From a phage: a DNA stretch of 64,000 nt. Numbering within the stretch: position 1 is the stretch's first letter; the number at the start of each line of letters is the position of its first letter. Shown in pieces: positions 2,667 to 62,638 of the stretch. The stretch lies in sequence record PZ386947.1; one strand, given 5' to 3'. The notes under the pieces were generated by a model. It ran no database searches. It was given only the letters and a program-made list of their open reading frames with translations, and was not told where the DNA came from. The position numbers and the translations under genes were made by a program.

Positions 2667-2813
2667 TTAAAAATTCTCGTTAGAGATTAAAACTCGGTAG
2701 TCACGTTCTTCTGAATTTCATCTTCTTTCGACAGATCTCTCAGTTGTAGACTACCACATAGAATTGTTCGGTTAACTTATTATTCCGACACCCAATTCAT
2801 ATTATTATTTATA

Positions 2814-3149
2814 TCACTTATAAAGACACGGAATAGCTTTATAGTGACAGGTAACGAATTTTTGTTTAATTTCTTTTGGCTGCTTAAGACCCAGAGCTAC
2901 AAAAGGATGCGGAACATTTCGAATTTGACCAACTGGAAGAGAAGTCAAATCACCAACTTCGCAGAAACCTTCAGGAACATCAGGACCGACAGAGTGAACT
3001 ACACACAGTTCAGGAACTTCACCTTGAACACGTTTACCGATAATAAGTCCTGATTCTGTGACTTCTTCATCACCTGCTTGTGCAGGTTCAGAAACTAAAA
3101 TAACATATTCACCGACAGCACGAATTGGTAGCTGTTGTACTTCAGACAT
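2814..3149 (-). CDS. 31: gp31 co-chaperonin (GroES analogue)
   Basis: 111 aa; sequence [24 protein letters not shown]... recognised as T4 gp31; length matches. Confidence 0.85.
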
Positions 3150-3205
3150 TGTTTTTCCTTTTTGTTAACAGATGAATTAATAATAACAAATAATTCTTAA
3201 AGCAT

Positions 3206-3514
3206 TTATTTACCAATAAATTGGAGTAAATGCTCAACTTTCATACCATTAACAGAAATCAATTTGTCAATAGAAAAACCTCGCCATGCACCAAGTTCAA
3301 CATCAAATACTGGAATCATGTCAGTAGATTCTTTCCAAGTAGATTCAGTCAATTTGCCGGTTTGCATGGTTGGCATAAAGTCCGCATCACGAGTACCTTT
3401 CATAATACGAATAGTACCATCAGACTTTTCAAAAACTACGTTTGAAACACCCATGGACAATTTAGTTTTCAAAATTTCACGAATTGCTACTTTCTGCTCA
3501 GTTGTCAGTTTCAT
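3206..3514 (-). CDS. hypothetical protein (31.x)
   Basis: 102 aa ORF between cd cluster and gene 31. Confidence 0.4.
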   Translation of the reverse strand: MKLTTEQKVAIREILKTKLSMGVSNVVFEKSDGTIRIMKGTRDADFMPTMQTGKLTESTWKESTDMIPVFDVELGAWRGFSIDKLISVNGMKVEHLLQFIGK

Positions 3515-3754
3515 TTATTTACCTATCACAGTTTTAATATGAGTTGTTCCACGTTCTTTAAGGGTGGAAAGTAATTTTTGGCATTTTTCTAAATCAGATT
3601 TCCAACTATATGGTCTATCAATACTAGTCCAATCAGTTTTATAATACTGTTTCCATTTAGAGAAAAAATATTTCTTATACTCTACAGCAAATGAGATGTT
3701 CTCATTAGAATAAGAACTAATTGCTGTGAGCTTTACCAAACGAAATTTCATCAT
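3515..3754 (-). CDS. hypothetical protein (31.x)
   Basis: 79 aa ORF, 4-nt overlap with cd. Confidence 0.35.
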   Translation of the reverse strand: MMKFRLVKLTAISSYSNENISFAVEYKKYFFSKWKQYYKTDWTSIDRPYSWKSDLEKCQKLLSTLKERGTTHIKTVIGK

Positions 3755-4332
3755 TCACCACAGAATTCGTTGATATTTTCCCAGTTTAACTTATTTAAGT
3801 TTTTCTTAGGAACATTAAACACTTCAATACCTGCATTTCGCAGAATATCATCCCAGCCAGGTTTATTTTTATCGTATGTTTCACAATAAACCAGCTTTTT
3901 AATTCCAGATTGAGCTATTGCTTTTGCACAATCTGGGCAAGGAGAAAGTGTTACATACATAGTAGCACCTTCAATAGAAGAACCATTTCGTGCAGCAAAC
4001 AAAATTGCATTTAGCTCAGCATGAATTTCATTTTTAGACGACCATTCAGAGTGAGCGCTGCGGTGTTCTTTCGCCAAGACAAAGCGATCAGTTGAACCAA
4101 ATGATACGCATTCAGGCTTATGGCCTTGGATGATAGTATGTTTAGGTTTATTCAGCAACCAACCTTGCTCAGCGGCATAATCACAACAGTTCACACCTCC
4201 TGCGGGTGAACCATTATACCCAGTAGAAATAATACGTCCATTCTTTTCAATTACTGCTCCTACCTTCCAGGAGCAGCATTTTGATTCTTGTGATACTAAA
4301 TATGCAATTTGAAGTACTGTACTCGCTTTCAT
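3751..4332 (-). CDS. cd: dCMP deaminase
   Basis: 193 aa; zinc-binding deaminase motifs HAELNAI and PCPDCA; length equals T4 Cd. Confidence 0.85.
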   Translation of the reverse strand: MKASTVLQIAYLVSQESKCCSWKVGAVIEKNGRIISTGYNGSPAGGVNCCDYAAEQGWLLNKPKHTIIQGHKPECVSFGSTDRFVLAKEHRSAHSEWSSKNEIHAELNAILFAARNGSSIEGATMYVTLSPCPDCAKAIAQSGIKKLVYCETYDKNKPGWDDILRNAGIEVFNVPKKNLNKLNWENINEFCGE

Positions 4333-8288: not shown

Positions 8289-9876
<1,588 letters not shown>

Positions 9877-9904
9877 AATAAAATGGGCCTTGCGGCCCAC
9901 TCCT
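9877..9904 (-). promoter_or_regulatory. structured translation-initiation region of denA
   Basis: AAGGAG immediately after nrdB stop, then hairpin GGGCC-GCAA-GGCCC, then AUUUUAUU AUG; hairpin sits between Shine-Dalgarno and start codon. Confidence 0.45.
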
Positions 9905-11082
9905 TAAAAGTATTTTTTAAAACTCATCATAACTTTATCATCAACATCATTATCAATCTGTGCAACAAGATAAGATGACAGTTCTACTTCTTGTGGCGCT
10001 GATTGAACATTATCAGAATTAAGATATTCACGAATCCAAGGATATGGATGTTTAACCGGAGCATCGGTAATTGGGCATGGAAGACCACACTGTTTCATAC
10101 GAGATACAGTTAAGTAATCAATAAAGCTCCACATGCTATTTGTATTTAATCCAGGAACATCGCCATCTTTAAATAAATGAACTGCCCAATCTTTTTCTTG
10201 GCGGTTAACTTCCATGAAAATATCAACTGCTTCTTGTTCACACTCTTTGGCAATTTTAACCCATTCATCACCATCAGTGCCAAGTTGAAGTTGACGAATA
10301 ATATATTGTGTACCTTTAAGATGAAGCTGCTCATCACGTGCAATGAACTTCATAATCTTGGCATTACCTTCCATGATTTCCATATTCTTGTGGAAGTTAA
10401 AGGTACATGCAAAAGATACATAAAAACGAATAGCTTCCAATGCGTTGATTACGTGCAGGCAGAGGTAAAGAGAGCGCATTAGTTCACGTTTCCAATACAT
10501 TTCATGCTCTATGGCATCTTCAATAACGTCTTCGTCTGCATTAATTTCTTTTTGGTATTCGATATCAGCTTTAGCGTTTTCCCAATAACGAGTTTTAATC
10601 AGAACATCATCATAATAACGTCCAATGGATTCAGCACGTTTCATAATAGCTTCATCTAATACAATTTCATCAAATACTTTCGATGGATCAGTATAAAGAT
10701 TTCGCATGATATGTGTATATGAACGGCTGTGAATAGTTTCACTAAAAGTCCACGTAGCAACCCATGTATCAAGGCTTGGGTCTGAAATTAATGACATAAG
10801 TACAGCAGACGGCGCACGACCCTGAATGCTATCCAAAAGTGATTGATACTTCAGGTTATTAGTAAAAATATTTTGCTGATACTGAGGAAGCTTATTAAAT
10901 TGCGCAGCATCCATCATTAAGTTTACTTCTTCAGGACGCCAGAAAAATGACAACTGCTTTTCGGTTAAATCTTCAAAAACTTTATGACGTTGAATATCAT
11001 AACGCGCAATACCAAGACCTGAACCAAAAAACATAGGTTCTTTTAAAACATCAACTGGATTTGTATTAAAAACTGTGCTCAT
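9904..11082 (-). CDS. nrdB: ribonucleotide reductase small subunit
   Basis: 392 aa, continuous ORF with no intron interruption; length close to T4 NrdB; adjacent to nrdA. Confidence 0.9.
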   Translation of the reverse strand: MSTVFNTNPVDVLKEPMFFGSGLGIARYDIQRHKVFEDLTEKQLSFFWRPEEVNLMMDAAQFNKLPQYQQNIFTNNLKYQSLLDSIQGRAPSAVLMSLISDPSLDTWVATWTFSETIHSRSYTHIMRNLYTDPSKVFDEIVLDEAIMKRAESIGRYYDDVLIKTRYWENAKADIEYQKEINADEDVIEDAIEHEMYWKRELMRSLYLCLHVINALEAIRFYVSFACTFNFHKNMEIMEGNAKIMKFIARDEQLHLKGTQYIIRQLQLGTDGDEWVKIAKECEQEAVDIFMEVNRQEKDWAVHLFKDGDVPGLNTNSMWSFIDYLTVSRMKQCGLPCPITDAPVKHPYPWIREYLNSDNVQSAPQEVELSSYLVAQIDNDVDDKVMMSFKKYF

Positions 11083-11133
11083 AAATTTTCCACTTAGTTA
11101 ATAGATAGTGACTCGTCCATGAGTCAAATTATA

Positions 11134-13398: not shown

Positions 13399-13715
13399 AA
13401 GTCCTCAACTTGAAAATCGTCTTTAAACAATCGGTTAACTATATGAGCTATTATATCACCATGACACGGCTTTGGTTTACATGTGCATCCTAGCCTCATT
13501 CCACGTAAAGGCTCTAAATGTGCTTTAGTTATTTCTCCGGATTTAATTCGACGTATAAAATCTTTTTTGAATAATTCAATGGCAGCCTCTCGGCTGCCAG
13601 CATCTTTACCGACGTAATTTCCCCAAAATGTACCACGGTGAATATTAACATCAAAGTCGGATTTATATTTATTCACTACCCGACATAGACGGCCCGCGCG
13701 GTGATAATTCGGCAT
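13389..13715 (-). CDS. conserved hypothetical protein (nrdA.1)
   Basis: 108 aa ORF immediately upstream of nrdA. Confidence 0.45.
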
Positions 13716-13932
13716 ATTGTTTTTCCGTTAAAACAGTAATATCATAATAACAGTCAGAAGAAATTTTAATGGTGGAAACTTTATTATCAAAATACTCACG
13801 GGTCATTTTATGAGTATAATATTTTTTGCCATAAATGATAATAGGCTGATTTGGTCCTGGAACTTCTAACTCGCTTGGGTTAGGAAGTGTAAAAAGAACT
13901 GCACCAGAAGTATCTTTAAATCGTAAAATCAT
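13669..13932 (-). CDS. hypothetical protein (nrdA.2)
   Basis: 87 aa ORF between td and nrdA.1; true start uncertain. Confidence 0.35.
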
Positions 13933-13955
13933 AAATCCTCACAATTAAATTAAAA

Positions 13956-14816
13956 TTACACCGCCATCTTTCCTTTAATTGGCGGGTGAGATACATAGTC
14001 GTTAAGAACAAAATTATGCGGCTTTGCTAATTGACTCAACCAAAATACCTGTGATTCTGTGTTCCATTCATCAAATTCATCTGGGAATTTTAATTGTAAT
14101 TCGCATAAATCCATAGGTTCACGACGCAAAATTTCTTTACATTGTTCTACGTGATTCATATAGATATGAGTATTACCGCCAGAAAATATCAAATCTCCCG
14201 GAATAAGATTACATATCTTAGCTACAATATGAACTAACGCAGCATATGATGCAATATTAAATGGAAGACCGAGGAAAACATCTACTGATCGTTGATACCA
14301 CTGAAGGTCAAGGTATCCATTACGAACATTAAATTGATAGAACATATGACAAGGTGGTAATGCCATCTGCTTGAGTTCAGCTGGATTCCATGCTGAAACA
14401 ATTTGACGCCTATCATTTGGCAGTTTTTTAATACGATCAATAACTTCTATAATTTGGTCTACACCACCAAAATCACGCCATTGTTTTCCATAAATTGGAC
14501 CAAGTTCACCGCTATGGTATCCTAAATCTTTTGCTTGATTTTCGTAATTTTCATCCCAAACTGTTTTGCCTTGGATTAACGAATCATGCTGAATTAATCG
14601 TAAATCATTGACATTTGTGCTTCCTGATAAAAACCATAGAAGCTCAGCAATGCATGCATTCCACGCAAGCTTCTTAGTTGTTACCGCAGGAAAACCTTTA
14701 GTTAAATCCCAACGTAATTTAGTACCGAACAAAGCAATTGTTCCTGTGCCTGTTCGGTCATCGGTTTCATAGCCATTTTCAAAAATGTCTTTAATTAAAT
14801 CTTGGTATTGTTTCAT
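13956..14816 (-). CDS. td: thymidylate synthase
   Basis: 286 aa uninterrupted, identical in length to spliced T4 Td; thymidylate synthase active-site region (LPPCH). Confidence 0.9.
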   Translation of the reverse strand: MKQYQDLIKDIFENGYETDDRTGTGTIALFGTKLRWDLTKGFPAVTTKKLAWNACIAELLWFLSGSTNVNDLRLIQHDSLIQGKTVWDENYENQAKDLGYHSGELGPIYGKQWRDFGGVDQIIEVIDRIKKLPNDRRQIVSAWNPAELKQMALPPCHMFYQFNVRNGYLDLQWYQRSVDVFLGLPFNIASYAALVHIVAKICNLIPGDLIFSGGNTHIYMNHVEQCKEILRREPMDLCELQLKFPDEFDEWNTESQVFWLSQLAKPHNFVLNDYVSHPPIKGKMAV

Positions 14817-14861
14817 TTAGTACCTTATATAAATTATAATACATTTTATGAAGCTAAATAA

Positions 14862-15209
14862 TCAATACGGTTTAGCATCAAATTTTCTCTCAATTTCAGG
14901 CGTGAAATATAATTCTTTACCGCGTTTGGAAAAGCGACCAATAATATGATAATTATTCTCATCAAACGTGATATTACCAATATCCATAGCTTTCAACCAA
15001 ATATCGATATTTCTATCCAGCTTTATGTCAAAATTCCAATACGGTGAACTATTACCGAAAATACTGCAAGCGGATTCAGTGAAACAACTGCTATAAATCT
15101 TGTCTTTAGGAACTACTAATTGATAGACACCTTTAATAAACTGAGGACCCTGCCACTTTGGCTGTTTCGTGTCTTTTTCTAATAGAATAGGGTAATAATT
15201 AAAATTCAT
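14862..15209 (-). CDS. hypothetical protein (td.1)
   Basis: 115 aa ORF between frd and td. Confidence 0.4.
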   Translation of the reverse strand: MNFNYYPILLEKDTKQPKWQGPQFIKGVYQLVVPKDKIYSSCFTESACSIFGNSSPYWNFDIKLDRNIDIWLKAMDIGNITFDENNYHIIGRFSKRGKELYFTPEIERKFDAKPY

Positions 15210-15228: not shown

Positions 15229-16055
<827 letters not shown>

Positions 16056-16066
16056 ATTATCTCCTA

Positions 16067-16399
16067 TTAAAAAGGATCAGGAACATATCCGCTAGCTTTA
16101 ATCATTTTAATTAACGTTAACATTCCTTTGTTAACTGCTCGTGAGATTTCATCAAAAACTTCATCACTAAAAAGTTCTAACACGCCCTTCTGAACTTTTA
16201 ATTTACAGCCAACAATTTCTTCATCGCCTACAGTAAATTCATTACCACCAATTCCACCGAAAAACTTAATTACACCAGTTAACTGTCTTCCACGAGAATA
16301 TGGGTCGTGTGATAAAGTAATATGAGTCACCCCGGGTACAGTTTTAAATTGGCAGCGAATATTTACTTGTGAAATTCCAGTTACATGAATGTCAGACAT
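16067..16399 (-). CDS. hypothetical protein (frd.x)
   Basis: 110 aa ORF. Confidence 0.4.
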   Translation of the reverse strand: MSDIHVTGISQVNIRCQFKTVPGVTHITLSHDPYSRGRQLTGVIKFFGGIGGNEFTVGDEEIVGCKLKVQKGVLELFSDEVFDEISRAVNKGMLTLIKMIKASGYVPDPF

Positions 16400-16710: not shown

Positions 16711-17013
16711 TTATTTTTGAATTTTATCGAGCCACTTACCAAGCTTAATCATTTCTTTAGTAGCCTTTTCCATACTTCTGAACTTGACCATTAGAGGATA
16801 GGTATCGACACCCATAACTAAACTGGTTACAAGACTGTGTTCACCCACAAGCCATAACGAATACGTTTGAATATCGAGCCCGTAATTTCTGTCTTTATGG
16901 ACCCGTACACCCATCACTTCAAATTTCTCACTAGCTTTTTCTACCGCATCCAGGAAATCATCTTTAGTCATATTAGGCCTTAAAAGTTTTTCGCAAAAGT
17001 TCAATGATTTCAT
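16711..17013 (-). CDS. hypothetical protein
   Basis: 100 aa ORF. Confidence 0.35.
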   Translation of the reverse strand: MKSLNFCEKLLRPNMTKDDFLDAVEKASEKFEVMGVRVHKDRNYGLDIQTYSLWLVGEHSLVTSLVMGVDTYPLMVKFRSMEKATKEMIKLGKWLDKIQK

Positions 17014-17338
17014 CTACATTGTTTTCGTCAACAATGCAGTGAATTTTTGTTACGCCAGAAACCTTGTCTTTGACTTCATCCTCTTCAGAAGTCGGTTCTT
17101 TATATTCGCGGAAACAATAAAACTCTTCTTCACAAACGTTAAAGTAAAAATGCTTTCCATTTGCGCATTCAATGTGTTTTATTACTCTAAATCCATCAAC
17201 AAAGAAAGCTTCTTTAACTTCAAACCATCCACCATTTTCTTGAATAATTTTAACTATCGATGAATTAGAACGTGGGCGATAATTAATAAATGTATCAATA
17301 AGTCTTGGAACAAGCTCATACTTTTTGCCAATATACAT
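16973..17338 (-). CDS. hypothetical protein
   Basis: 121 aa ORF; Shine-Dalgarno GAGGAAAACG upstream. Confidence 0.35.
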   Translation of the reverse strand: MYIGKKYELVPRLIDTFINYRPRSNSSIVKIIQENGGWFEVKEAFFVDGFRVIKHIECANGKHFYFNVCEEEFYCFREYKEPTSEEDEVKDKVSGVTKIHCIVDENNVDEIIELLRKTFKA

Positions 17339-17383
17339 TACGTTTTCCTCATTTTAACGGGGCTTGTAATAGCCCCTTGATAA

Positions 17384-17614
17384 TTATTGTTCAATCAATC
17401 CCATGTAAAATTCTGCGTCTTCAGAATCCATACCATCACAATATTCATTAGCCATAAAGCGGGTGAGGTCTTCAAGAGGACCTTCAATGACAATAGAAAA
17501 ATTGCAATAATTGGGATCATCGTGAATACTTGTGATACTAAGTTCAGGATAACGATTACGAATAATTTCTTCAATATATTCAAAATCAACGATGTCAATA
17601 TCAACTTTAGCCAT
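17384..17614 (-). CDS. hypothetical acidic protein
   Basis: Track ORF trimmed to ATG at 17614 ([13 protein letters not shown]...), 76 aa; AAAGAGGA Shine-Dalgarno; early promoter immediately upstream. Confidence 0.4.
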
Positions 17615-17711
17615 ATTGTTTTCCTCTTTAATCGTCAGCAGTATTGCCGATAGTTGTATAGTACCATAGAAGAACAGGGATGTAAACCATTTTGTGAAAA
17701 AATTTTGAAAT

Positions 17712-17734
17712 AAAAAAGGGACCTCTAGGGTCCC
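17712..17734 (-). terminator. intrinsic terminator downstream of gene 32
   Basis: Stem GGGACC / GGTCCC with 4-nt loop, followed by U6 on the minus strand, directly after gene 32 stop. Confidence 0.6.
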
Positions 17735-18666: not shown

Positions 18667-18765
18667 TTTTATTTCCTTTTTAATTTAATTAACAGTTGGT
18701 GCTATGACGATGTATGACCTCATAGCTGGTCAGTGAGATAATTATAATCTATTTATAATAAGCAA

Positions 18766-19419: not shown

Positions 19420-19754
19420 AGCAGAAAATCTAATGTATTAGTTTTTTCACAACGAACAACAGAAGGACGTAAAAGATTTTCGTCAATGGCTTCTGACTGA
19501 ATTTTTTCAATTATACCCGAAGGAATAAATTTAGCAAATTGAGTTTCAGGAATAGAGTTTTCTTCCAAGAATGCTGTTGTAGCTTCAAGATAACTCATTC
19601 CAAACTCTTCTATCATTTTTTCAATAATAAATCCGTTTTCTTGACGATCAAGAAGCTTTGCTATTTCATCCTTTTCTTTCTTGATTGAAAGTTCTTTTTC
19701 TGAAAGACCGGTCTCATCGACCGGACGAATATCATTTAGAGAAAACTGTGTCAT
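19416..19754 (-). CDS. 33: gp33 late transcription co-activator
   Basis: Trimmed to ATG at 19754 (MTQFSLNDIRP...), 112 aa as in T4 gp33. Confidence 0.7.
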   Translation of the reverse strand: MTQFSLNDIRPVDETGLSEKELSIKKEKDEIAKLLDRQENGFIIEKMIEEFGMSYLEATTAFLEENSIPETQFAKFIPSGIIEKIQSEAIDENLLRPSVVRCEKTNTLDFLL

Positions 19755-20001
19755 AAAGTTCAACTACCTCTTCAGTTTCAGCTTCAAACACATCACGATT
19801 ATCTTTATGATACAAAGCTAATAGACGATTAAACATCTTACCATCAACGCCAAGTTCATCTTTGGCACGAATTCGAATATCTTTAATCAGTTCATTATAA
19901 CCGGAAATTTTCAGTTTATGGTCAGATGCTTCTTTAATAAATTTAGCCAAGTCTTCGCCATGGATAGCTTCATCAAATTCAACCATTTCTTTTTTAGCCA
20001 T
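19732..20001 (-). CDS. dsbA: DsbA double-stranded DNA-binding protein
   Basis: 89 aa, same length and position as T4 DsbA. Confidence 0.65.
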   Translation of the reverse strand: MAKKEMVEFDEAIHGEDLAKFIKEASDHKLKISGYNELIKDIRIRAKDELGVDGKMFNRLLALYHKDNRDVFEAETEEVVELYDTVFSK

Positions 20002-26746: not shown

Positions 26747-29692
26747 ATGGCTACTTTAAAACAAATACAATTTAAAAGAAGCAAAACTGCAGGTCAACGT
26801 CCTGCTGCTTCAGTATTAGCCGAAGGTGAATTGGCTATAAACTTAAAAGATAAAACAATTTTCACAAAAGATGACTCAGGTAGTGTTATAGAATTAGGTT
26901 TAAAATATGGAGGAACTATAAATGGGTCTTTAGAGGTTACAGAAAATATAACTGGAACTTTAATTGGAAATTCTAGCACAGCTACTAAATTGCAAACACC
27001 TAGGAAAATTAATGGTATATCTTTTGATGGGTCAAAGGACATTACCTTAACTCCATCTGACATAAATGTCAATAGCACAACATTTATAAAAAATAATGGC
27101 GAATTACCTACTGATGCTAATTTAGATACGTATGGGCCCATTGAAGAATATCTTGGTGTTTGGTCGAAATCTACTTCAACAAATGCGCAACCAGCAAATA
27201 AATTCCCAGAAAAAAATGCCGTAGGTGTACTAGAAGTGTTTGTGGCCGGCCAATTTGCTGGCACTCAGCGTTATACTGTAAGATCTGGTAACGTCTATAC
27301 TCGTTCCTTATCTGCTAAATGGAATGGCGTCGATGGTCCATGGGGTGTGTGGCGTAATGTTCAAGCGTCAACTCGTCCACTTTCACAAACGATTGACCTT
27401 GATAGCTTGGGAGAATTAGAACATTGTGGCTTATGGCGAAACAGTTCAAGCGCAATCGCATCATTTGATCGCCATTATCCAGAAGAAGGATCAGCCGCAC
27501 AAGGATTTTTAGAAATATTTGAAGGTGGTTTATACACGAGAACTCAGCGTTATACTACCCGCATGGGTATGGTTTATACTCGTTGTCTCGCTGCTGCATG
27601 GGATGCTAGTGCACCTAAGTGGGAGGAATGGAAGCAGGTTGGTCATGGCACACCAGCGACTTTCTATGATGGTGACCTTAATGATTTTAAAACTCCTGGG
27701 TTATATAATATTTTAGGCACCGATGCCGTTATTAACTGCCCTACAGGTGAAGGTTTGCCGCCTGTTATTGTTGGTTTGCTGGAAGTTAAACAGCGTGCTT
27801 CTGGTGGTGCTATTTTCCAAAAATTTACTACTGCCGGAACAGGCGCAACTACTCGCGGACGTATTTTTGAGCGTGCATATACTGGTGGTGCGTGGGGTGC
27901 ATGGAACGAAGTATATACATCTTACTCTCTGCCAATTACTTTGGGTATGGGTGGTATTAAAGCTCAATTAGCGGAGTTAGATTGGCAAACCTTTGATTTT
28001 GTTCCTGGTAGTATGTTTAGCGTTCCTTTGAACAAAATAAAGAACATGCCAGCAAATATGGATTGGGGGACGATTGACGGAAACTTGGTTATGTTTTCCG
28101 TTGGTCCTAGCGAACACACTGGCACAGGGCGTACTGTTCAGGTTTGGCGCGGTACTGTATCCCAGACAAACTACCGTTATTTCGTTGTTCGTATCGCTGG
28201 TAATCCAGGAAGTAGGACTAATACTTGTCGCCGTGTTGTTCTTGAAGACGGATCACATACTTGGACTGCTCAACAAAACTTTAGGGGATTGCTGAATATC
28301 ACTGCTGCTGTTAATCTTGGTGCTAATCAGAAAATTTCACTTGCTCCAGGAGCATATATTCAAGCCCCTGCTAGCGGTTCTGGTTCTAATACTTACGCAA
28401 ATCAGAATACTACCATTGCGCCATTATATCAGGCTATTGACAATTCAAATAAAAACCAGTTTGCGCCAATTGTTAAACAGAAAAATACTGTAAGTAATAT
28501 CACCTTTGCCACTGGTATGGCTATAGGTACATCCGAATATAAGATCATTGCTCAGGGTGATTTATCCGCTGATGGAACAGCAGATGGGTTAAAACAGTGG
28601 ACTTTCATGCCGTCAGGTTATTTTAAATCTCCAGGGCGTGTATATGTCGGTGGTGCGTTCCTTAATACAGATGGTAATATTGCCGGTTCAATCTGGAAGA
28701 AATATAACAATGCGACAAATTTAGATGCTGCCTTGAATACTCGCGTAGGTAAAGGCGGTGATACGATGACAGGTCGGTTAACAATCAATACACCTAATGA
28801 TTCTATTGTATTATCAACGACTGCTAGTAATTCTTTGCATATTCGTGGTGACATAGACGGGACTGGTAACTGGTATATTGGTAAGGGTGGTGCTGATAAT
28901 TCGCTAGCATTTTATAGCTATGCTTCTCAGGCGGCAGTACATATCACAAACAATGGTGAGATTGCGTTAAACCCGCAAAATACCACAATGGTTAACGTTA
29001 ACCGTGACCGTGTACACATTAACGGTTCTGGATGGATTGCTAGACAACCGGGTGATTGGGGCAACCAATGGCAAGTAGAAGCTCCATTATTCGTTGATCA
29101 TGGTTATGTTTCACAGGATTGTTATTATCCTATTCTTAAAGCAAGAAGCGTTATAACCAATCAAGGATATAGCACCGCTGTTGACTTTGGTATGCGTCGT
29201 ATTCCATCACAGTGGGGGCAAGCAATCATTCGTGTCGGATCCACGGAGGCTTCTCCTGATGCTGGACACCCACAAGCTGTGTTTGAATTCCATCATGATG
29301 GATTCTTTTATACACCAGGAAATGGTAGCTTTAGCGATGTGTATATTCGTTCTGACTCCCGTCTCAAGATTAATAAAGAAGAATTAGAATATGGAGCGGT
29401 CGAAAAAGTTTGCCGACTGAAAGTTTATATTTACGATAAAGTTAAGTCTATTAAAGACCGTAGTGTTATTAAACGTGAAGTTGGTATTATTGCTCAGGAC
29501 CTTGAAAAGGAATTACCGGAAGCTGTATCTAAAGTTGAAGTTGATGGATCTGATGTTCTGACAATTTCTAACTCTGCTGTGAATGCTCTTTTAATTAAGG
29601 CTATTCAGGAAATGAGTGAAGAAATTAAAGAATTGAAAACGCCTCTCTTTACTAAAATTGCTCGCAAAATTAGTAAATATTTTAAATTCTAA
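26747..29692 (+). CDS. 37: long tail fiber distal subunit gp37
   Basis: 981 aa; N-terminus [22 protein letters not shown] typical of gp37; shorter than T4 gp37, consistent with a T2-type gp37/gp38 arrangement. Confidence 0.9.
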
Positions 29693-29698
29693 CAACAA

Positions 29699-29716
29699 GG
29701 GGGAAATGCCCCCTTT
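29699..29716 (+). promoter_or_regulatory. intergenic hairpin between genes 37 and 38
   Basis: GGGGG-AAATG-CCCCC stem-loop plus TTT, directly upstream of GGAG Shine-Dalgarno of gene 38. Confidence 0.45.
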
Positions 29717-29728
29717 GGAGTATAAATT

Positions 29729-30508
29729 ATGGCAGTAGTTGGAGTTCCTGGCTGGATTGGAAGTTCAGCCGTAAATGAAACGGGTCAGCGCTGGATGAGT
29801 CAAGCAGCTGGTCAATTAAGATTGGGTGTTCCTTGCTGGATGAGTCAATTTGCAGGTCGCTCAAGAGAAATTATTCATACACTTGGAGCAGACCATAACT
29901 TCAATGGTCAATGGTTCCGAGATAGATGTTTTGAGGCAGGTAGTACACCTATAGTGTTTAATATCACTGGAGATTTAGTATCATATTCTAAAGATGTTCC
30001 TTTATTCTTCATGTATGGAGATACACCGAATGAATATGTTCAGTTGAATATACACGGCGTAGCGATGTATGGCCGTGGCGGTAATGGCGGTAGCAATAGT
30101 CCTGGTTCAGCTGGCGGTCATTGTATTCAAAACGATATTGGTGGGAGACTAAGAATTAATAATGGCGGAGCTATTGCTGGAGGTGGCGGCGGCGGAGGCG
30201 GCGGCAACAGGGGTAGACTATCCTTTGGCGGCGGAGGCGGTCGTCCATTTGGCGCTGGTGGGTCTTCCTCTCATATGAGTGCTGGTGCAACCTCCGGCAC
30301 TATTTACGCTCCGGGTGCAGGATCTGTCGGTGAGGGGTCTCTTAGTGCATATACAGGCGGGAATGGCGGTGAAGTTGGCTCCGCAGGAGGTAGATGTAAT
30401 ACTCACGGTACCGGTACAGAATATGACGGCGGTGCTGCTGGTTATGCCGTCATAGGGTCTACGCCGACATGGCAAAACGTTGGAGCAATATATGGTCCAA
30501 GAGTATAA
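29729..30508 (+). CDS. 38: gp38 receptor-binding adhesin (T2-type, glycine-rich)
   Basis: 259 aa with multiple poly-Gly stretches ([24 protein letters not shown]) separating short variable segments; follows gene 37. Confidence 0.8.
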
Positions 30509-30538
30509 TGTGAATAAATACCCTTAAAAGGAGGGTCT

Positions 30539-32210: not shown

Positions 32211-32490
32211 ATTGAATCACCTTCAGTTGACGTTTTAATTCTTTTATCATTTCTTCGTTCATCGCAATATAAAGATCGCGTAAAGCAGGTTTTAACATTC
32301 CATTTACTGGAGAACTAAATGGACATACATAATCTTTTCCTACGAGCTTTTTAGTTAATTCCATATCACAGAATTTAAATCCCGGTTCATTGGTATAAAT
32401 TCCCCAATTAGTTGACATCATTTTATTGGCATATTCCAGCGCCTGGATTTGATTCATAATTCCATCAATTTGAAACTTTTTAATATTCAT
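32194..32490 (-). CDS. hypothetical protein (arn.x)
   Basis: 98 aa ORF. Confidence 0.35.
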   Translation of the reverse strand: MNIKKFQIDGIMNQIQALEYANKMMSTNWGIYTNEPGFKFCDMELTKKLVGKDYVCPFSSPVNGMLKPALRDLYIAMNEEMIKELKRQLKVIQFGQGN

Positions 32491-32954
32491 TAGTAAAGGT
32501 CCTCAGAGTAAAGTTCTTTTTCACTACCACCACGTTCAATACGTACTTGTCCAGCGTAAGTTGCAATAATCATTGCTTCTTCACGTGTCCAATAATTACT
32601 ATATTGGTCAATAAACCCTTGGTCATCATCACAAACTTGTTGAGTAACTAATTGAGGTTTAACTACATCTAAAACTGCTGCCATATCTTTAGAATAATGA
32701 CGAGCACCAGGAATAACAAGAGTTCCACCATCCTTTAATTTAAACCGATTAGCAGCACATACAATTCGTCGTTGATACTTTTGGTTTTCATCCCAGTATG
32801 CAGGCTGCCAACAGATTTCAGGAACTTCTTTCAGAACATCTTCTTCCGTATAATTAGTATAACCTGCTGATTTAAATTTTTCGGCTAAACTCTCTGGAGT
32901 CTCACGAGATAATGCAACGTTTAGCATTTCAAGTCTTTCTTCAAATGTTTTCAT
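32490..32954 (-). CDS. hypothetical protein (arn.x)
   Basis: 154 aa ORF. Confidence 0.4.
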
Positions 32955-33280
32955 TTAAACCATCCTTTAATACGCTGCCACAAAGTTTTCTGTTGAGCTT
33001 TGTTAACACCAATTGAACGAATAACTGGTTGAGATTCCTGGAATTCTTTATAATCAGCAAGGTAAATTTCGTAAGCTGCATCCGTAAATGAACTTATCGC
33101 TGCCATAAAATTATTGCGAATACCTACTGGAGCATCTTTACTTTCACGAATAATCATGTATTTACCAGTCTTAATCTTTACGATAGTTCCAAGATAAGCT
33201 CCATGGTACCAGATGTCCCACCCCTCTTGAGTGGGTTCTGCACAACGACGAAGTTCATTGACAATTTCTAACTTGTTCAT
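32951..33280 (-). CDS. hypothetical protein (arn.x)
   Basis: 109 aa ORF. Confidence 0.4.
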
Positions 33281-40027: not shown

Positions 40028-42205
40028 TTAGGCCGCAAGGGCCTTCATAGTTTTAGCGATTTGGGAAACTTCATCATCACTTAAAGAGTTGCGATATCCG
40101 ATGAAGTCGGAAACAATACGGAATTTCTTGGTAAACTCAGCAACCATTTTATCACTGTTTTTTGAAGCATTATTTGATAATACATCAAAAAGATTAGTTA
40201 CTGTCCAGATGTCATGACCGATGGTATCTTTTCCACCATTAAAATATACACCGCGCAATGAACTAACTATATTAGCGAGTCGTGTATATTCTTCAGAAAC
40301 TTCATCTGTACTGAAGTACTTCATCATAAAATCTAGTTCAGGATACTTGATAATTTTATCAATATATCGTTGAGCTGAACTTGAATAACCTACATACTTA
40401 TCATAATCTACATCATCAAAAGCATCTACATATAAATCACGCAAAGCTTCAAAAATACATTGGCACTGACCGAGTTCTTTTACCTTTTTCTGTAAAAGCG
40501 GACGAATAACATAAAATTCATTAATGCCAATAAGATTAGCCATACGAATCAAAATATTCATAGATGGATGACAAAGAGATGTAGTACCATCCATAGAGAA
40601 AATATCAGAACGATGCATATACGCTACATAACCAGTAATTTCATCTGCTTCTGACGTAAGTGTAAATAGTTCCTCTTTTTCCCAGCGCCCGTCTTTAATT
40701 TCAAACTTAAATGCTGTAGCAGCTTTAGGACGAGGAGCTTTACTTTTAACTACCTTTGGAATATAGCTTTTAACTAAAGCTTCAATTTCTGACAAATAAT
40801 GAATGTTAACTTCATCACTTTCAAACATCGCCATAATATCAGGAAGTAAATCAATCTGCGATTCTACTTCTGGGTTAATAAACAGAAGGCGTTCGTTATG
40901 ATGAATATTTAAAGTGTTATTAAATTCACTATCATCTAACGCATGTGCTAATCCACGGACAATATTAACACGATTTTTAATATCATCAATAACGATATTA
41001 ATTTTTGTTGTATTAATACCAAACAGACGATAGCTTGATGCAACGGCTGAAGTTTCATGGCTTTGCTTAATACGTTTCAGCCGAGGGTCAAGATTTACTT
41101 CATACACAACTCCTGCATTGCATAACTTACTATCAGGTTCAAACATGCTCTGCATCTTCTTATATGACAGATTTTTAGTCGTAAATTTGACTGAATTACT
41201 AATCATATAATCTCGAGCAGAATACCCCATCTTCATCAATTCGCGATATGTGTGACGAGGAGATGTAGATTCTTTAAATCGTTTTACATCTTCATTAAAT
41301 GCTTTCTCACTGAGTTCTTTAACTCGTTCAATAATATTTTTACGAGTGCGATCATCCAGTGAAAGAGCCTCGCGAGATGGAGCAATATCAAGTGAACCCA
41401 TTGGAAACTTAATGTAATTCACTTCATTGCGAATGCTTAGCCAGTTACGGTCTCTAATAACACCATCGATAGGATAAACAATACCGCCATAGATAGCATA
41501 CAATCCGCCGCGATCAGGCCAGTATCTTTCTGGATTTACACCGTAATAGTCATCAAAATCTGGAAAATAATCAATTTCGCGGTCAAGACCATTAATGATA
41601 GCCAAATCTTTGAATGGTCGCATGATATAAGAAACTTCATAAGCAAAGTTTCTAAAGTCTTTTTCTTCAACTGGAACTACGATTTCAATGCCAGTTTTAT
41701 CATCTGGACCCATTTCTTTTACGAATGTAGGTTTAATCTGTGGACCATCACCATCCATGTAAGCTACATAACCACGAATTTCACCTTTATGATACGAAGT
41801 AATACTAAACGTATCAGTATAACTAAACGGAGATTTAGAACCTAAACCAAATCCGCCAATGAAATCGTTAGATTCAGCTTTAGATGAACTGAAGTATGAA
41901 TTATACAAGCCAGGAGAATTATCATCACCTTGAATATCAAAATCACTCATACCCGGACCAAAATCTCGACAAACAAATCGCGGGTCTAAACGTCCTGGAA
42001 CTTGTATGATAAATTTTTCAGGATTTCCATTGAGAGCATGGGCATCAATCATATTAGTAATCAATTCACGGACTACTGCGCGAATCTTGTTTGTATACAA
42101 ATCAGATGACAGAATTTTAAATACTTTAGGAGATGCTGTGATGCTAAATGCTTTTGATTTAGAACCATTGCCAAGAATTGTTTCTTTTTCAGTGGTGATA
42201 ATCAT
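40028..42205 (-). CDS. rIIA: rIIA lysis-inhibition protein
   Basis: 725 aa, identical in length to T4 rIIA; N-terminal GHKL-type ATPase-like region. Confidence 0.9.
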
Positions 42206-42444: not shown

Positions 42445-42474
42445 ATTATACCACATCCTTGTGGTAAAGTAAAC
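42445..42474 (-). promoter_or_regulatory. early sigma70-type promoter for rIIA.1 / rIIA
   Basis: Minus strand GTTTAC (42474-42469), 18-nt spacer, perfect TATAAT (42450-42445). Confidence 0.55.
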
Positions 42475-44294
42475 TATTGGCTCATCCATTCTTTACGAAG
42501 ATCAGCATTATCTCCCATGAGCATTTCAAAAAGCTCTTTCCAGTTCTCAGGAAGTTTAACAACATCATATACTGGGTTTTGAATCATCTCACGATATTCA
42601 GATTTTTCCAAAGAGCCAAGTCCTTTAATATAACGGATGCTATGTTTAGGTAGAGCATCTTTGGCACTCTCATATTCAGCGACTGTATAAAACCATTCTT
42701 GTTTTTTACCGACCTGAGCGATGATTACAGGAGTTTTGACAAAGCGAATTCGTCCTTGCTCAAACAATTCTGGCCAATTACTAAAAAATCCGAGCAGAGA
42801 AGGATAAATGCTTCCTAGACCATCATGGTCAGCATCAGTCATAATAGCAATATTATGATAATTCAAGTTTTCAGCTTTTTCACCGAGAACTAATCCAGTG
42901 ATTGCGCAAATATCAAATAGTTCTTTGTTTTTAAGCATATCGGCATATGACATACCCCAGCTATTAAGAACTTTACCGCGCAATGGATAACCACCATGAA
43001 GTTCTTTATCACGAACATCAATAAGATATCCGATAGCTGAATCACCCTCAGTCAAGAACAATGTAGTGTCAGCATCTTTACCGCAAAGATTCGCTTTAAT
43101 ATGTTTATGAACCTTAGCTTTAGAAGCCTTTTTAGCTGCTTTAGTTTCTGCTGCTTTTTCTGCTGCCAATTTACGGGCCAAGGCAGCTTCAATAATTGGC
43201 ATCAAAATAGCTTCATTATTTAGAATAGCGCGTGAAATCTTTTTAGCATCAAGCTGAATATGACTACGAATTTCGCCAAATGGAGAAGTCAAACGCTCTT
43301 TAGTTTGAGAATCAAATCGCATGTTTTTCATATCACGGACAAACATAACGATAGTCAAACATTCTTTGACACGCGCTTTAGTCACATCAATTTTGAACTT
43401 ACGTTTGATTTGCGGAATAAGGTCTTCACAAATATCATCCATAACACAGTCAATGTGATGGCCACCATTCTTAGTGTGAATGTTATTCACATAAGTTAAT
43501 TGGCGAAATCCATCCGGTGAACGACCAACCGCAATAGAACAATTTTCTTGTTCTTGAACAATAGCATGTTCATCATACTGTCGTGCATATTTCTTAAAAT
43601 TGCCCTGAACCTTTTTACCATTAAAGGTAAATTGAATATCAGGATAAACAACAGCAAGTGTCTGGAGACGATCTAGTGTAATGTCAAGATAAACTTGGGA
43701 CAGCTCATTAGTTTCAAATGACATAAAATCAGGAATGAAAGTAACACGAGTTCCTTTCCATTTTCCAGGAATAGTTTCCCAGGATTTATTTTCCATGCCA
43801 TTTGAACAACGAACTACAATATTATTTTGACCATCGCCAGTTTCACCGACAAACATCACAGAAAAAATGTTAGTTAAACTAGAACCAACACCATTCATAC
43901 CACCGGTGACGCGTTCTTTATCATCACCAAAGTTACCACCTGCTTTTGGAATAGTCCAAGCAGCAACTGGGCCAGGAATTTCTTCACCGGTAGGTGTTTT
44001 AACCATCGCTTGTGGAATACCGCGACCGTTATCTTCAACTGTTACCTGATTATTTTTAATGGTAACATTAATTTTATTTGCGAATTTAAACTTAGTACGA
44101 ATACCTTCATCTACTGAGTTATCGATAATTTCATCAATAAGCTTAACAAGACCAGGTACATACTGAACACTTTCCCATTTACCAAACAGAAAGCGCTCAT
44201 GCATTTCATTAGCTGAAGAGCCAATGTACATGCCGCTACGCTTTTTGATATGTTCAATATCGCTCAGAATTTTAATTTCATTCTTAATCATCAC
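42474..44294 (-). CDS. 39: DNA topoisomerase II large subunit, unsplit (gp39 plus gp60 equivalent)
   Basis: 606 aa continuous GyrB-like ORF (ATPase domain plus TOPRIM); T4 splits this into gene 39 and gene 60, here it is one ORF. Confidence 0.9.
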   Translation of the reverse strand: MMIKNEIKILSDIEHIKKRSGMYIGSSANEMHERFLFGKWESVQYVPGLVKLIDEIIDNSVDEGIRTKFKFANKINVTIKNNQVTVEDNGRGIPQAMVKTPTGEEIPGPVAAWTIPKAGGNFGDDKERVTGGMNGVGSSLTNIFSVMFVGETGDGQNNIVVRCSNGMENKSWETIPGKWKGTRVTFIPDFMSFETNELSQVYLDITLDRLQTLAVVYPDIQFTFNGKKVQGNFKKYARQYDEHAIVQEQENCSIAVGRSPDGFRQLTYVNNIHTKNGGHHIDCVMDDICEDLIPQIKRKFKIDVTKARVKECLTIVMFVRDMKNMRFDSQTKERLTSPFGEIRSHIQLDAKKISRAILNNEAILMPIIEAALARKLAAEKAAETKAAKKASKAKVHKHIKANLCGKDADTTLFLTEGDSAIGYLIDVRDKELHGGYPLRGKVLNSWGMSYADMLKNKELFDICAITGLVLGEKAENLNYHNIAIMTDADHDGLGSIYPSLLGFFSNWPELFEQGRIRFVKTPVIIAQVGKKQEWFYTVAEYESAKDALPKHSIRYIKGLGSLEKSEYREMIQNPVYDVVKLPENWKELFEMLMGDNADLRKEWMSQ

Positions 44295-53033: not shown

Positions 53034-53504
53034 CTAGCGATAAAAACCAAATTGACGATTAGCTTCAATAATCTTTCTTTCTTCTTCGGACATTCTCCAG
53101 CGTAGTCCAACATCAAAATGAGCCCAGACCATCTTAACAAATGCATTTATATCTTTAATATCTTCAATAATGAATGATTTACTTTTAGAAGGTTGACTCG
53201 CTAATTTAACTTTATCGTCTTCAAACAGGTCAAAAAGACCATATTCATGGGCTCTTTTATAGCCTTTAATAGTTAAAGCTTCAGAAGAAGAAAAAGGTGA
53301 ATCTGTATTCTGCAAAATATCTTCAGTATGCTTTATAATTAGAATAACATTTTCTGGATATTTTCTTTCTTTTATATCTTTAATTAAAAGATCCGGATTT
53401 TCTGCTAAAGGAATAATTAATGAGCACTTTTTATCAAGTGTATTTACTGATTTACCTTCTTTGGACATAAATTCTATTGAATAATGTTTTGCTACTTCAA
53501 TCAT
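53034..53504 (-). CDS. hypothetical protein (modA.x)
   Basis: 156 aa ORF. Confidence 0.4.
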
Positions 53505-53657
53505 GTGATTTCCTTTTGCCTACTAATGGACCGTCAGGAATTTTATTTTCCTGAATGTATTTTTCATTTTCTTCCATCATTTTACTGCCAATTTTAAGAA
53601 GCAAATCCATTGCTTCATTTGCTTTAGCTTTAGCCTCTTCTAATATCATATCTCTGT

Positions 53658-53861
53658 TCACGATTTATCCCCATAGATGTCTCTCATTAATTTAAGCGCT
53701 GAGCGTTCTAATTTCTTTTCTTTCTCAGCACTAATCATTGATTTCATCCATTCTTCCGATTCGTTCTGCATTTCTTTATTTGCTTGTTCAACCCAACCAT
53801 CATCAATATACATCGAGTTTGGTCTATTGAACCATTCAAGCATCTTCTTCAGAGCTTTCAT
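53658..53861 (-). CDS. hypothetical protein
   Basis: 67 aa ORF. Confidence 0.35.
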
Positions 53862-54333
53862 TTGTTTTACCTAAAACAACAGTAGGAGCATCATCAAATT
53901 CATGAATTTTTAGCAAATTTGGATGTAAACTATTCCATACAGAAGAAATAAAGTATGATAACGCATCTTCACTTGCAATTATAAATTTATTTCCTTTATC
54001 TATTTTCCAACTATATAGTGAATCGTACGAATAAAAAGATAAAGGCTTATCATTATATTGTTCTGCGCTAACATTAATGTATTCGGATTTAGTAAATGCT
54101 TCAATTGCTCTAAATGGAATATTTGGTACAGTTTCAATAATACCAATCTTTTTAAGTTTTATTTCAGCATCTTCTGGAACTGGCATTGAAACGAAATTTT
54201 CTACGAGATACATTGGGTCACAATAACCCTTATCAATCATTACTGCTACGGTAATTGGAACGTCTTTAGCAAACGACATACTATTACTGCTAATATACAT
54301 TTCAAACAAAATCGCTTCCATAATTTTCCTCAA
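53836..54333 (-). CDS. hypothetical protein
   Basis: 165 aa ORF. Confidence 0.4.
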
Positions 54334-55215: not shown

Positions 55216-55245
55216 GTAATTCTCCTTTTATTTAAATTACATGAT

Positions 55246-55253
55246 TATTTATA
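55246..55253 (-). promoter_or_regulatory. late promoter (TATAAATA) for soc
   Basis: Minus-strand TATAAATA about 30 nt upstream of soc ATG. Confidence 0.5.
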
Positions 55254-55298
55254 ATAAATTCTCGCGGCTTTTAAGTCGTCGTTTATTTAAACGAGCTA

Positions 55299-55817
55299 TT
55301 AATAGCCTCGGTCTTGACGAGCGAAATTTTCAGCATTTTTCAGATAATAAAGTTTAAATATTTCTTCAGCTGACATTCCAAGAGCAATAAATTTATTCAT
55401 GAAAAAGTGAAATTGGTCAATCAGTTCAAATTTAATTTCAAGCTGATCTTCAGGAGATAAGTCTTGAATTTTCTTGGATTGCATTTCAGAATAACGTTTC
55501 TTCCAAGGTTTCCATACGGCAGAAGCTTCTTTTTCACCATTACTCATACCACCAAGAGAAGTATATAGTTCGCGAGTTTCATCTGCGATATAATCGTCTT
55601 GGTTTCGCAACCAAGCAAGAACTTCTCCTGCAGTTTCAAGTGAATCGGGATGACGATTTGTTTCTGGTTTATCATTAGCCAAACGAATCTGTAAATGCCG
55701 CTGCATATCAAGCATAACCTGCAGTGGGTCAATATTGTGCATAATATTCTCAGCATATGCACGATTTGCTTTATCAACACCTTCGATCAAATGAGCGCAT
55801 TCATTAAAGTGAGCCAT
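55299..55817 (-). CDS. 56: dCTP/dCDP pyrophosphatase (MazG-like)
   Basis: Track ORF trimmed to ATG at 55817 (MAHFNECAHLIEGVDKAN...), 172 aa (T4 gp56 about 171). Confidence 0.8.
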   Translation of the reverse strand: MAHFNECAHLIEGVDKANRAYAENIMHNIDPLQVMLDMQRHLQIRLANDKPETNRHPDSLETAGEVLAWLRNQDDYIADETRELYTSLGGMSNGEKEASAVWKPWKKRYSEMQSKKIQDLSPEDQLEIKFELIDQFHFFMNKFIALGMSAEEIFKLYYLKNAENFARQDRGY

Positions 55818-55888
55818 TATTTTTCCTTTCAATTCATGAGTTAGTAGATTAATTATACAATAAATATATAAAGCAATAAGGAGGACAT

Positions 55889-57282: not shown

Positions 57283-57909
57283 TTAACCTCTATTCATAAA
57301 AGCATTAAAAATTTGGTCATCAATAGAAACATTTACTTTAGACTGTTTTTCTGATGGTAATTCATATCCACATATTACAATTTTGTGATCAATATCAAAA
57401 TACACAGAAGCAATATGATTAATGATGTTTTCAGTAAAGTCTAAATCAACATCAATATCTTTTTGACCACAGCCCAAAGGATAAATAATGCGAGTAATTC
57501 GATTATCTTTAACAAATATTCCACCGACATACTCTGTACTGCGTTTAAAGTCTACACGCCGACGAAATGAAAAATATTCAGGCTCTTTATGAGCTCGGCT
57601 CATAGGACACAACGAGTAACTAGAATAAGAGATGTCAAATCCTACGCCTTCGATATGAGCCAAAGTGTCATGATTAAACCAATTATAATCGTACGCCAAA
57701 TCCATTAGATTATAATATGTAAAAGGCACCGGATTAACATCATTAGTCACAAGCATGTAATTAGCAACTGCTATAATTTCATTGTTTTTAACGAATACAA
57801 ACCGTGATTGATGCGAATGACCTGGACCCGCGTTTTCACGATTAATGATATAACACTGGGCACCTTTATATTTGTATGTATCTTTGCATTTGTGCATTTG
57901 ATAGAGCAT
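57283..57909 (-). CDS. hypothetical protein at the T4 61.2 position (possible AdfA-like anti-DarT factor)
   Basis: 208 aa ORF between 61.1 and sp; identification is positional only and rests on my recollection that T4 61.2 is AdfA. Confidence 0.35.
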   Translation of the reverse strand: MLYQMHKCKDTYKYKGAQCYIINRENAGPGHSHQSRFVFVKNNEIIAVANYMLVTNDVNPVPFTYYNLMDLAYDYNWFNHDTLAHIEGVGFDISYSSYSLCPMSRAHKEPEYFSFRRRVDFKRSTEYVGGIFVKDNRITRIIYPLGCGQKDIDVDLDFTENIINHIASVYFDIDHKIVICGYELPSEKQSKVNVSIDDQIFNAFMNRG

Positions 57910-61712: not shown

Positions 61713-61789
61713 TCATTTTTTCCATAGGCATCATTATATTTTCCTCACTGGTTAAAGATAGAGTAATTATAACACAATAAATTTAGGCA

Positions 61790-62638
61790 TTAATCAACTG
61801 CTATTGGATGAATAGCATTAAACTTATGAAATGCTTCTGATTTTTCTTTACGAGAAACACACATGCGAAGAACCTTTAATGGCTCGTCTTCTTCACCCAA
61901 CGATTTTCGTTTTTCAATATTAGAAGTTTTCCAACGAGCTTGCTCTGGAAACTCTCTATTGATTTGCTCAAGCGCTCTATTATGTTTAGAATTACTACGA
62001 ATTGAACTGCACCCGCCAGGAGCTTGTGCTTTTCCAGATACAACCAGATATTTGAACAAGGCCAAATGCGGATAACCTTGATTAATTAAATTGAGAAATG
62101 CATACATATCTTCGCACAAATCAATTTTTCCATACCCAATTTGTTCTGTCGTAAGTTTTCCGAGGTCATACCATGTATTCGTGAATCCATATGAATTTTC
62201 ACGATAATTACCCCAAGATGAAGTAATTTTAAAAATAGGTAGACGAGCATGGCCATGATAATACCCACAATCCATGGCATCCTCAACATATTGAATCAAT
62301 TCATAGAACTGTTCACGAGTCAATTGATTGACTTTATCCACACAACGACGATCATCTCTTTTTCGCATTGAACTCATACGAATAGTAGTATCATCGTCAA
62401 TCATCCAGATTCGTTGACCTGCATACATATCAGTAATTGCTTTACGAGTACCAGCAATTCCATTTACATCATCAGGAATAGTTATAATTTTAGCTCTAGA
62501 CCCATAGGCATCATAATAAGCTTTTTCTTCATGTTCACGCACTACAATATGGGGTTCATAATCAGTCGGAAACATATCAAGGGCAGAAACTGCCCCGACA
62601 CGCTGATAACTTGGAATTACGAATTGAATCATTTCCAC
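61790..62638 (-). CDS. GT-A fold glycosyltransferase at the beta-gt locus (HMC-DNA glycosylation)
   Basis: 282 aa; N-terminal VIPSYQR and DxD-like IWMIDDDTTI motif typical of GT-A enzymes; sits between uvsX and gene 42 where T4 has beta-gt, but length and fold differ. Confidence 0.5.
   Translation of the reverse strand: MEMIQFVIPSYQRVGAVSALDMFPTDYEPHIVVREHEEKAYYDAYGSRAKIITIPDDVNGIAGTRKAITDMYAGQRIWMIDDDTTIRMSSMRKRDDRRCVDKVNQLTREQFYELIQYVEDAMDCGYYHGHARLPIFKITSSWGNYRENSYGFTNTWYDLGKLTTEQIGYGKIDLCEDMYAFLNLINQGYPHLALFKYLVVSGKAQAPGGCSSIRSNSKHNRALEQINREFPEQARWKTSNIEKRKSLGEEDEPLKVLRMCVSRKEKSEAFHKFNAIHPIAVD

Follow-up and report, generated by a model that had tools for sequence, protein, structure and literature searches.

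The region of phage DNA between positions 42474 and 44294 holds gene 39, the gene for the topoisomerase II large subunit, as one uninterrupted open reading frame on the minus strand. The stretch in which it lies (sequence record PZ386947.1; 64,000 nt, hereafter the window) also carries intron-less genes for thymidylate synthase (td) and the RNR small subunit (nrdB), as well as short spacers at positions where T4 has homing endonuclease genes (Table 1). From gene 30.3 by way of rIIB/rIIA to imm, the genes of the window follow the T4 order. Shigella phage CM8 (Tequatrovirus cm8) aligns to the whole 64-kb window at 99.81% identity, with 84 mismatches and 18 gaps; this alignment spans the ends of the CM8 record, position 1 of CM8 corresponding to window position 40028. 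For a 4-kb query around gene 39, identity is 100% with CM8 and 96-98% with hundreds of further Tequatrovirus genomes. The window is distinct from CM8, as seen for example in gp38 (29729-30508), which has 259 aa as against 260 aa in CM8, a 3-nt difference in length.

Table 1. Genes, motifs and spacers of the window discussed in the text (window coordinates).
Feature	Position	Strand	Remarks
denA (endonuclease II), sole GIY-YIG protein in the window	9466..9876	-	100% identical to T4 DenA; PF01541 E = 1.7e-6
Intron-less nrdB, RNR small subunit, 392 aa	9904..11082	-	Empty intron site between 10407 and 10406
nrdB-nrdA spacer, 51 nt	11083..11133	.	T4 comparison: nrdB.1 and mobE (~700 nt) in T4
Intron-less td, thymidylate synthase, 286 aa	13956..14816	-	Empty intron site between 14268 and 14267
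Gene 32-gene 59 spacer	18667..18765	.	T4 comparison: segG in T4
Gene 52, GyrA-like partner subunit, 442 aa	34541..35869	-	~96% nucleotide identity to T4 gene 52
Unsplit gene 39, topoisomerase II large subunit	42474..44291	-	605 aa from ATG 44291; GHKL ATPase, GyrB transducer, TOPRIM
64-nt 'parental' segment, replaced by the MobA element in T4	42810..42873	-	Sequence identical to T2
TOPRIM acidic motif D-A-D-H-D-G codons	42819..42836	-	D490/G491 in 605-aa numbering
soc-gene 56 spacer	55216..55298	.	T4 comparison: segF in T4
uvsX-glucosyltransferase spacer	61713..61789	.	T4 comparison: segA in T4

Called mechanically, the gene 39 reading frame (42474-44294, minus strand) begins at a GTG at 44294 and encodes 606 aa, which is the length given in the preliminary description. 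The very next codon, at 44291, is an ATG. The start context GAGGATAAGTGATG is common to gene 39 of T4 and of the window, and both T4 and CM8 are annotated from the ATG, which is also better placed than the GTG behind the GAGGA Shine-Dalgarno sequence. Because of this annotation and this spacing, a length of 605 aa, as in T2, is the most likely one for the gene 39 protein; the single ORF of the preliminary description stands, and its length is the part that most likely has to be changed. Window gp39 is identical to residues 1-473 of T4 gp39 at 465 of 473 positions (98.3%) and continues unbroken into residues 27-160 of T4 gp60, with 128 of 134 residues identical (95.5%). The gene runs colinear with T4 gp39 and then gp60 in one ORF that contains no stop, frameshift or coding gap. 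Only two residues differ between T2 gp39 and window gp39, and the 71 nucleotide differences between the two genes over 1818 nt are mostly synonymous.

Domain searches with the gp39 sequence returned the Pfam families HATPase_c, DNA_gyraseB and TOPRIM_C above their cut-offs and Toprim below its own (17.5 vs 23.1 bits). At full length the protein matches type IIA topoisomerases; its best PDB match is 8ylu_C (residues 1-605, 1388 bits), and a 605-aa large subunit chain is present in six PDB entries, 8ylu and five related ones. A scan for promoters and terminators around gene 39 found no more sites than in shuffled sequence. The structure of unsplit T6 gp39 has been solved. The topoisomerase II of T2 and T6 is built from two subunits, and that of T4 alone from three (PMC11461880, T4 and T6 structures; source of the 8ylu group of entries). 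In the window, one 605-aa chain with the ATPase, the transducer and the whole TOPRIM domain would pair with gp52 to give an A2B2 type IIA topoisomerase, as in T2 and T6. A single-chain GyrB-like subunit of this kind requires neither subunit reassembly nor ribosomal bypass.

The position at which T4 gene 39 is split is readily located in the window. DNA homology to T4 ends at window position 42809 and restarts at 42874, so that 64 nt in the window stand against 1117 nt in T4 (T4 2794-3910). The T4 segment comprises the gp39 C-terminal extension, mobA, 60.1, the gp60 N-terminal extension and the 50-nt bypass. None of these parts of the MobA element was found in the window, which bears out the earlier contrast between a T4 gene split into 39 and 60, with mobA and a bypass, and the unsplit gene seen here. 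Directly after the DADHDG motif the window continues with CTA (Leu), giving LGSIY, whereas in T4 the Gly codon that closes the motif is followed by TAG and the 50-nt coding gap. The 124 nt around the would-be insertion point are identical to T2 except at three upstream positions. Insertion of the MobA element is described as deleting a 64-nt parental segment, with the end of the insertion at D490 or G491 (10.1101/2022.08.31.505936), and both the 64-nt segment and the D490/G491 position in the window fit this published anatomy.

Similarly, the exons of td and nrdB are continuous. Window td lacks the 1017-nt T4 intron (with I-TevI) exactly at 14268/14267, and window nrdB lacks the 598-nt T4 intron (with an I-TevIII remnant) exactly at 10407/10406. 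The Td protein has 286 aa, the same as spliced T4 Td, and 255 of 286 residues are identical; NrdB has 392 aa vs 388 in spliced T4 NrdB, with 362 identical residues, and the four extra residues fall in a variable patch around residues 161-205. The preliminary description had both genes uninterrupted and at spliced-protein lengths. Their continuity was confirmed, and the statement on length is exact for Td and approximate for NrdB. Neither gene needs splicing for its expression. With the I-TevI target geometry taken from PMC2988022, the CAACG cleavage motif is kept in the window td gene, 23-27 nt upstream of the insertion site, and the ~39-bp target carries five substitutions relative to the T4 exons.

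Intron-like catalytic RNA was sought with Rfam models. At gathering thresholds nothing was returned for the window, yet the T4 td and nrdB introns were missed as well, so this negative is uninformative. The gathering score of Intron_gpI (50) exceeds the scores of the T4 introns (35.7 for nrdB, 40.3 for td), and default Rfam scans miss both; a negative Rfam scan at the gathering threshold is uninformative on phage introns that carry ORFs. When Intron_gpI was run in E-value mode, the positive controls were detected, the T4 td intron at 40.3 bits (E = 9e-8) and the T4 nrdB intron at 35.7 bits (E = 2e-6); the matches lie at 14509-14749 (nrdB) and 19596-19826 (td) of T4 locus L004. With E-value cut-offs of 1 for the matching stretch of the window and 0.05 for the whole window, the same mode gave no Intron_gpI match. 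Pairwise alignment to T4 across genes 39/60, td and nrdB showed all of them colinear, without split reading frames.

The T4 interval syntenic with the window contains seven homing endonuclease genes (mobA, segF, segA, I-TevIII, mobE, I-TevI and segG), and all seven positions are empty in the window. The preliminary description had concluded that the phage lacks several mobile insertions of T4; within the window this is confirmed and extended by four further absences (mobE/nrdB.1, segG, segF and segA). It had also reported no seg or mob ORF, in agreement with our searches: when 15 T4 homing endonucleases were compared with 1201 six-frame stop-to-stop segments of the window, by tblastn, phmmer and family HMMs built from all 15, no match was better than E = 0.027. 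As a positive control, the same queries found a segB-like gene, mobD and a second mob-like gene in CM8 outside the window, with E values from 1e-15 to 1e-176. The search has power because the same queries recover these three CM8 homing endonuclease genes. Pfam and PHROGs profiles identified no GIY-YIG, HNH, LAGLIDADG or other nuclease domain in the window-specific ORFs, defined as the ORFs of all segments of at least 40 nt without a DNA match to T4.

The only GIY-YIG protein of the window is DenA. We considered the ORF at 9466-9900 as an overlooked seg gene and rejected it: the ORF is DenA/EndoII, 100% identical to its T4 counterpart and in the conserved denA position. DenA/EndoII is a conserved host-DNA nuclease and no homing enzyme.

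Four genes annotated in CM8 as homing or HNH endonucleases lie outside the window (CM8 32367-33221, 53097-53876, 68156-68764 and 68983-69591): a mob-like gene between 46 and 46.1, a copy of mobD (99.6% identical to T4), a segB-like gene and an HNH gene. Two of the four sit in the tRNA cluster. The CM8 nrdD gene is uninterrupted. The lineage is poor in homing elements, yet, because CM8 has these four genes outside the window, it is not free of them.

The window differs from T4 in several other respects. A 115-aa ORF (14862-15209, phrog_1928) lies between td and frd, genes that overlap in T4, and at 15810-16399, between frd and frd.1, the window has two small ORFs more than T4, of 81 aa and 110 aa (DUF7247); none of the three contains a nuclease domain. 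The genes for gp37 (distal tail fibre) and gp38 (adhesin, Pfam GP38), at 26902-30513, have no DNA match to T4 and form a T2/T6-type module. At 61790-62638 a 282-aa glycosyltransferase (Pfam TAGT) replaces T4 beta-gt, again a T2/T6-type module; in CM8 it is annotated as beta-glucosyl-HMC-alpha-glucosyltransferase. The homologue of T4 61.2 (57283-57909) is a full-length match to Pfam AdfA (anti-DarT factor A; E = 1.5e-136), and AdfA, a known anti-defence gene, is conserved in the window. The T4 dam methyltransferase gene is absent, 20 nt between gene 56 and gene 61 (55858-55877) standing in place of T4 16826-17724, and searches of the window and of the sampled 98% of CM8 gave no homologue of Dam. 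Missing dam was considered as an unusual trait and rejected, the dam-less junction being common among phage records (294, vs 183 with a T4-like dam).

Identity to T4 shifts at both empty intron sites. In nrdB (window 9400-11082) the exon-2/denA side matches T4 at 97.6% and the exon-1 side at 84.3%; in td (window 13617-14819) the values are 93.7% for exon 1 and 85.4% for exon 2. Such a mosaic would be in keeping with earlier recombination or co-conversion at homing sites. The switches at the two insertion sites, together with the gain-and-loss cycles described for homing elements (PMC2988022), also speak for a history in which an ancestor carried elements, such as the td or nrdB intron, and was cured of them precisely by recombination with an intron-less allele. 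However, gene 39 contains no remnant of the element-encoded C- and N-terminal extensions and retains the 64-nt parental segment in a form identical to T2, and the junctions are seamless. We regard such a secondary loss as unlikely, and the present-day state is identical under either history. That real insertions were collapsed out of the sequence by an assembly or annotation error has a probability close to nil: the same uninterrupted junctions are seen in hundreds of independent genomes, the reading frames are intact and of full length, and no point in support of such an artefact was found.

A different alternative is that one of the window-specific ORFs encodes a homing endonuclease of an unrecognised family, with the 115-aa ORF at 14862-15209 as lead candidate. 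This ORF is an insertion relative to T4, adjoins a classic homing target gene and belongs to a PHROG family without known function, and about ten small window-specific ORFs likewise have no known function. However, it lacks a Pfam nuclease domain and is unlike any T4 seg, mob or I-Tev protein, and 115 aa leave little room for both a nuclease and a DNA-binding domain. T4-like genomes, moreover, commonly contain small variable ORFs, and a hidden endonuclease of this kind seems to us very improbable. We hold with high confidence that the window comes from a close relative of CM8, a T2/T6-type Tequatrovirus, in which gene 39 is parental, td and nrdB are intron-less and the four mobE/seg sites are empty. 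Chance is not at issue here, because the comparison is made with a reference genome and does not depend on a statistical signal.

The state of the window is the majority state at all three loci, gene 39, td and nrdB. A record was scored as empty if the window's uninterrupted junction matched it across 80% or more of the query, and as occupied if it contained the T4 insert, again at 80% or more. Among public phage records, in counts that include redundant, near-identical genomes, the empty gene 39 junction occurs in 474 and the mobA cassette in 41, the intact td junction in 295 and the intron in 197, and the intact nrdB junction in 494 and the intron in 118; the direction is clear at each locus. 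The mobA split is found in only ~8% of comparable records. An unsplit gene 39 with intron-less td and nrdB is the described T2/T6 state and is already known, and T4 is the exception. Since the T4 reference genome is an outlier, the lack of a T4 homing element is no distinguishing feature of a new Tequatrovirus genome. The significance beyond annotation is small: the gene is to be named as a T2/T6-type single-chain gp39 (605 aa).

The preliminary description connected the missing insertions with marker exclusion in co-infections, which is the textbook explanation for T2 x T4 crosses (PMC2988022). In that review of T4 mobile elements, cleavage sites of T4 endonucleases in T2 are tied to the exclusion of T2 markers, and in work cited in 10.1101/2022.08.31.505936 MobA was shown to copy the split gene and the bypass into T2. 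In a mixed infection with T4, the phage studied here would be on the receiving side for T4-type elements, and gene conversion would cost it the flanking markers. Its MobA target region matches T2 and its exon junctions in td and nrdB are unbroken, so it would probably act, like T2, as recipient of the mobA cassette and of the td and nrdB introns in crosses with T4. From these sequences we predict that it is susceptible to MobA, I-TevI and I-TevIII.

Gene 56 (window 55299-55857) is 73.9% identical to T4 at the nucleotide level vs ~96% in its flanks, a hotspot of divergence beside the empty segF site. Gene 56 is the gene that SegF targets when T4 is crossed with T2. Its 26% nucleotide divergence and the five I-TevI-target substitutions in td might be candidates for cleavage-resistant targets. 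It is quite improbable, in our judgement, that the sites stay empty through such target variants and not through lack of exposure; were it so, the lineage would have partial immunity against T4-type marker exclusion.

As in the intron-less td and nrdB genes of T-even phages that serve as recipients of I-TevI and I-TevIII, the exon junctions are continuous at the T4 insertion sites; relative to the T4 alleles, the differences are the five substitutions in the td target and the four additional residues of NrdB. The coding sequence of gene 39 is orthologous to that of T4 39/60, and the two agree in upstream sequence and start context, whereas the split T4 gene has the 1117-nt insert that window gene 39 is without. 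Synonymous differences between the two are concentrated around the DADHDG codons. The window gene is another example of the 'parental Topo2L' alleles (10.1101/2022.08.31.505936) and shows no difference from that class; a further shared trait is that the split is missing from a close relative's genome. The length of 605 aa, the order of the domains and the gp52 partner are all as for gp39 of T2 and T6, with no notable difference.
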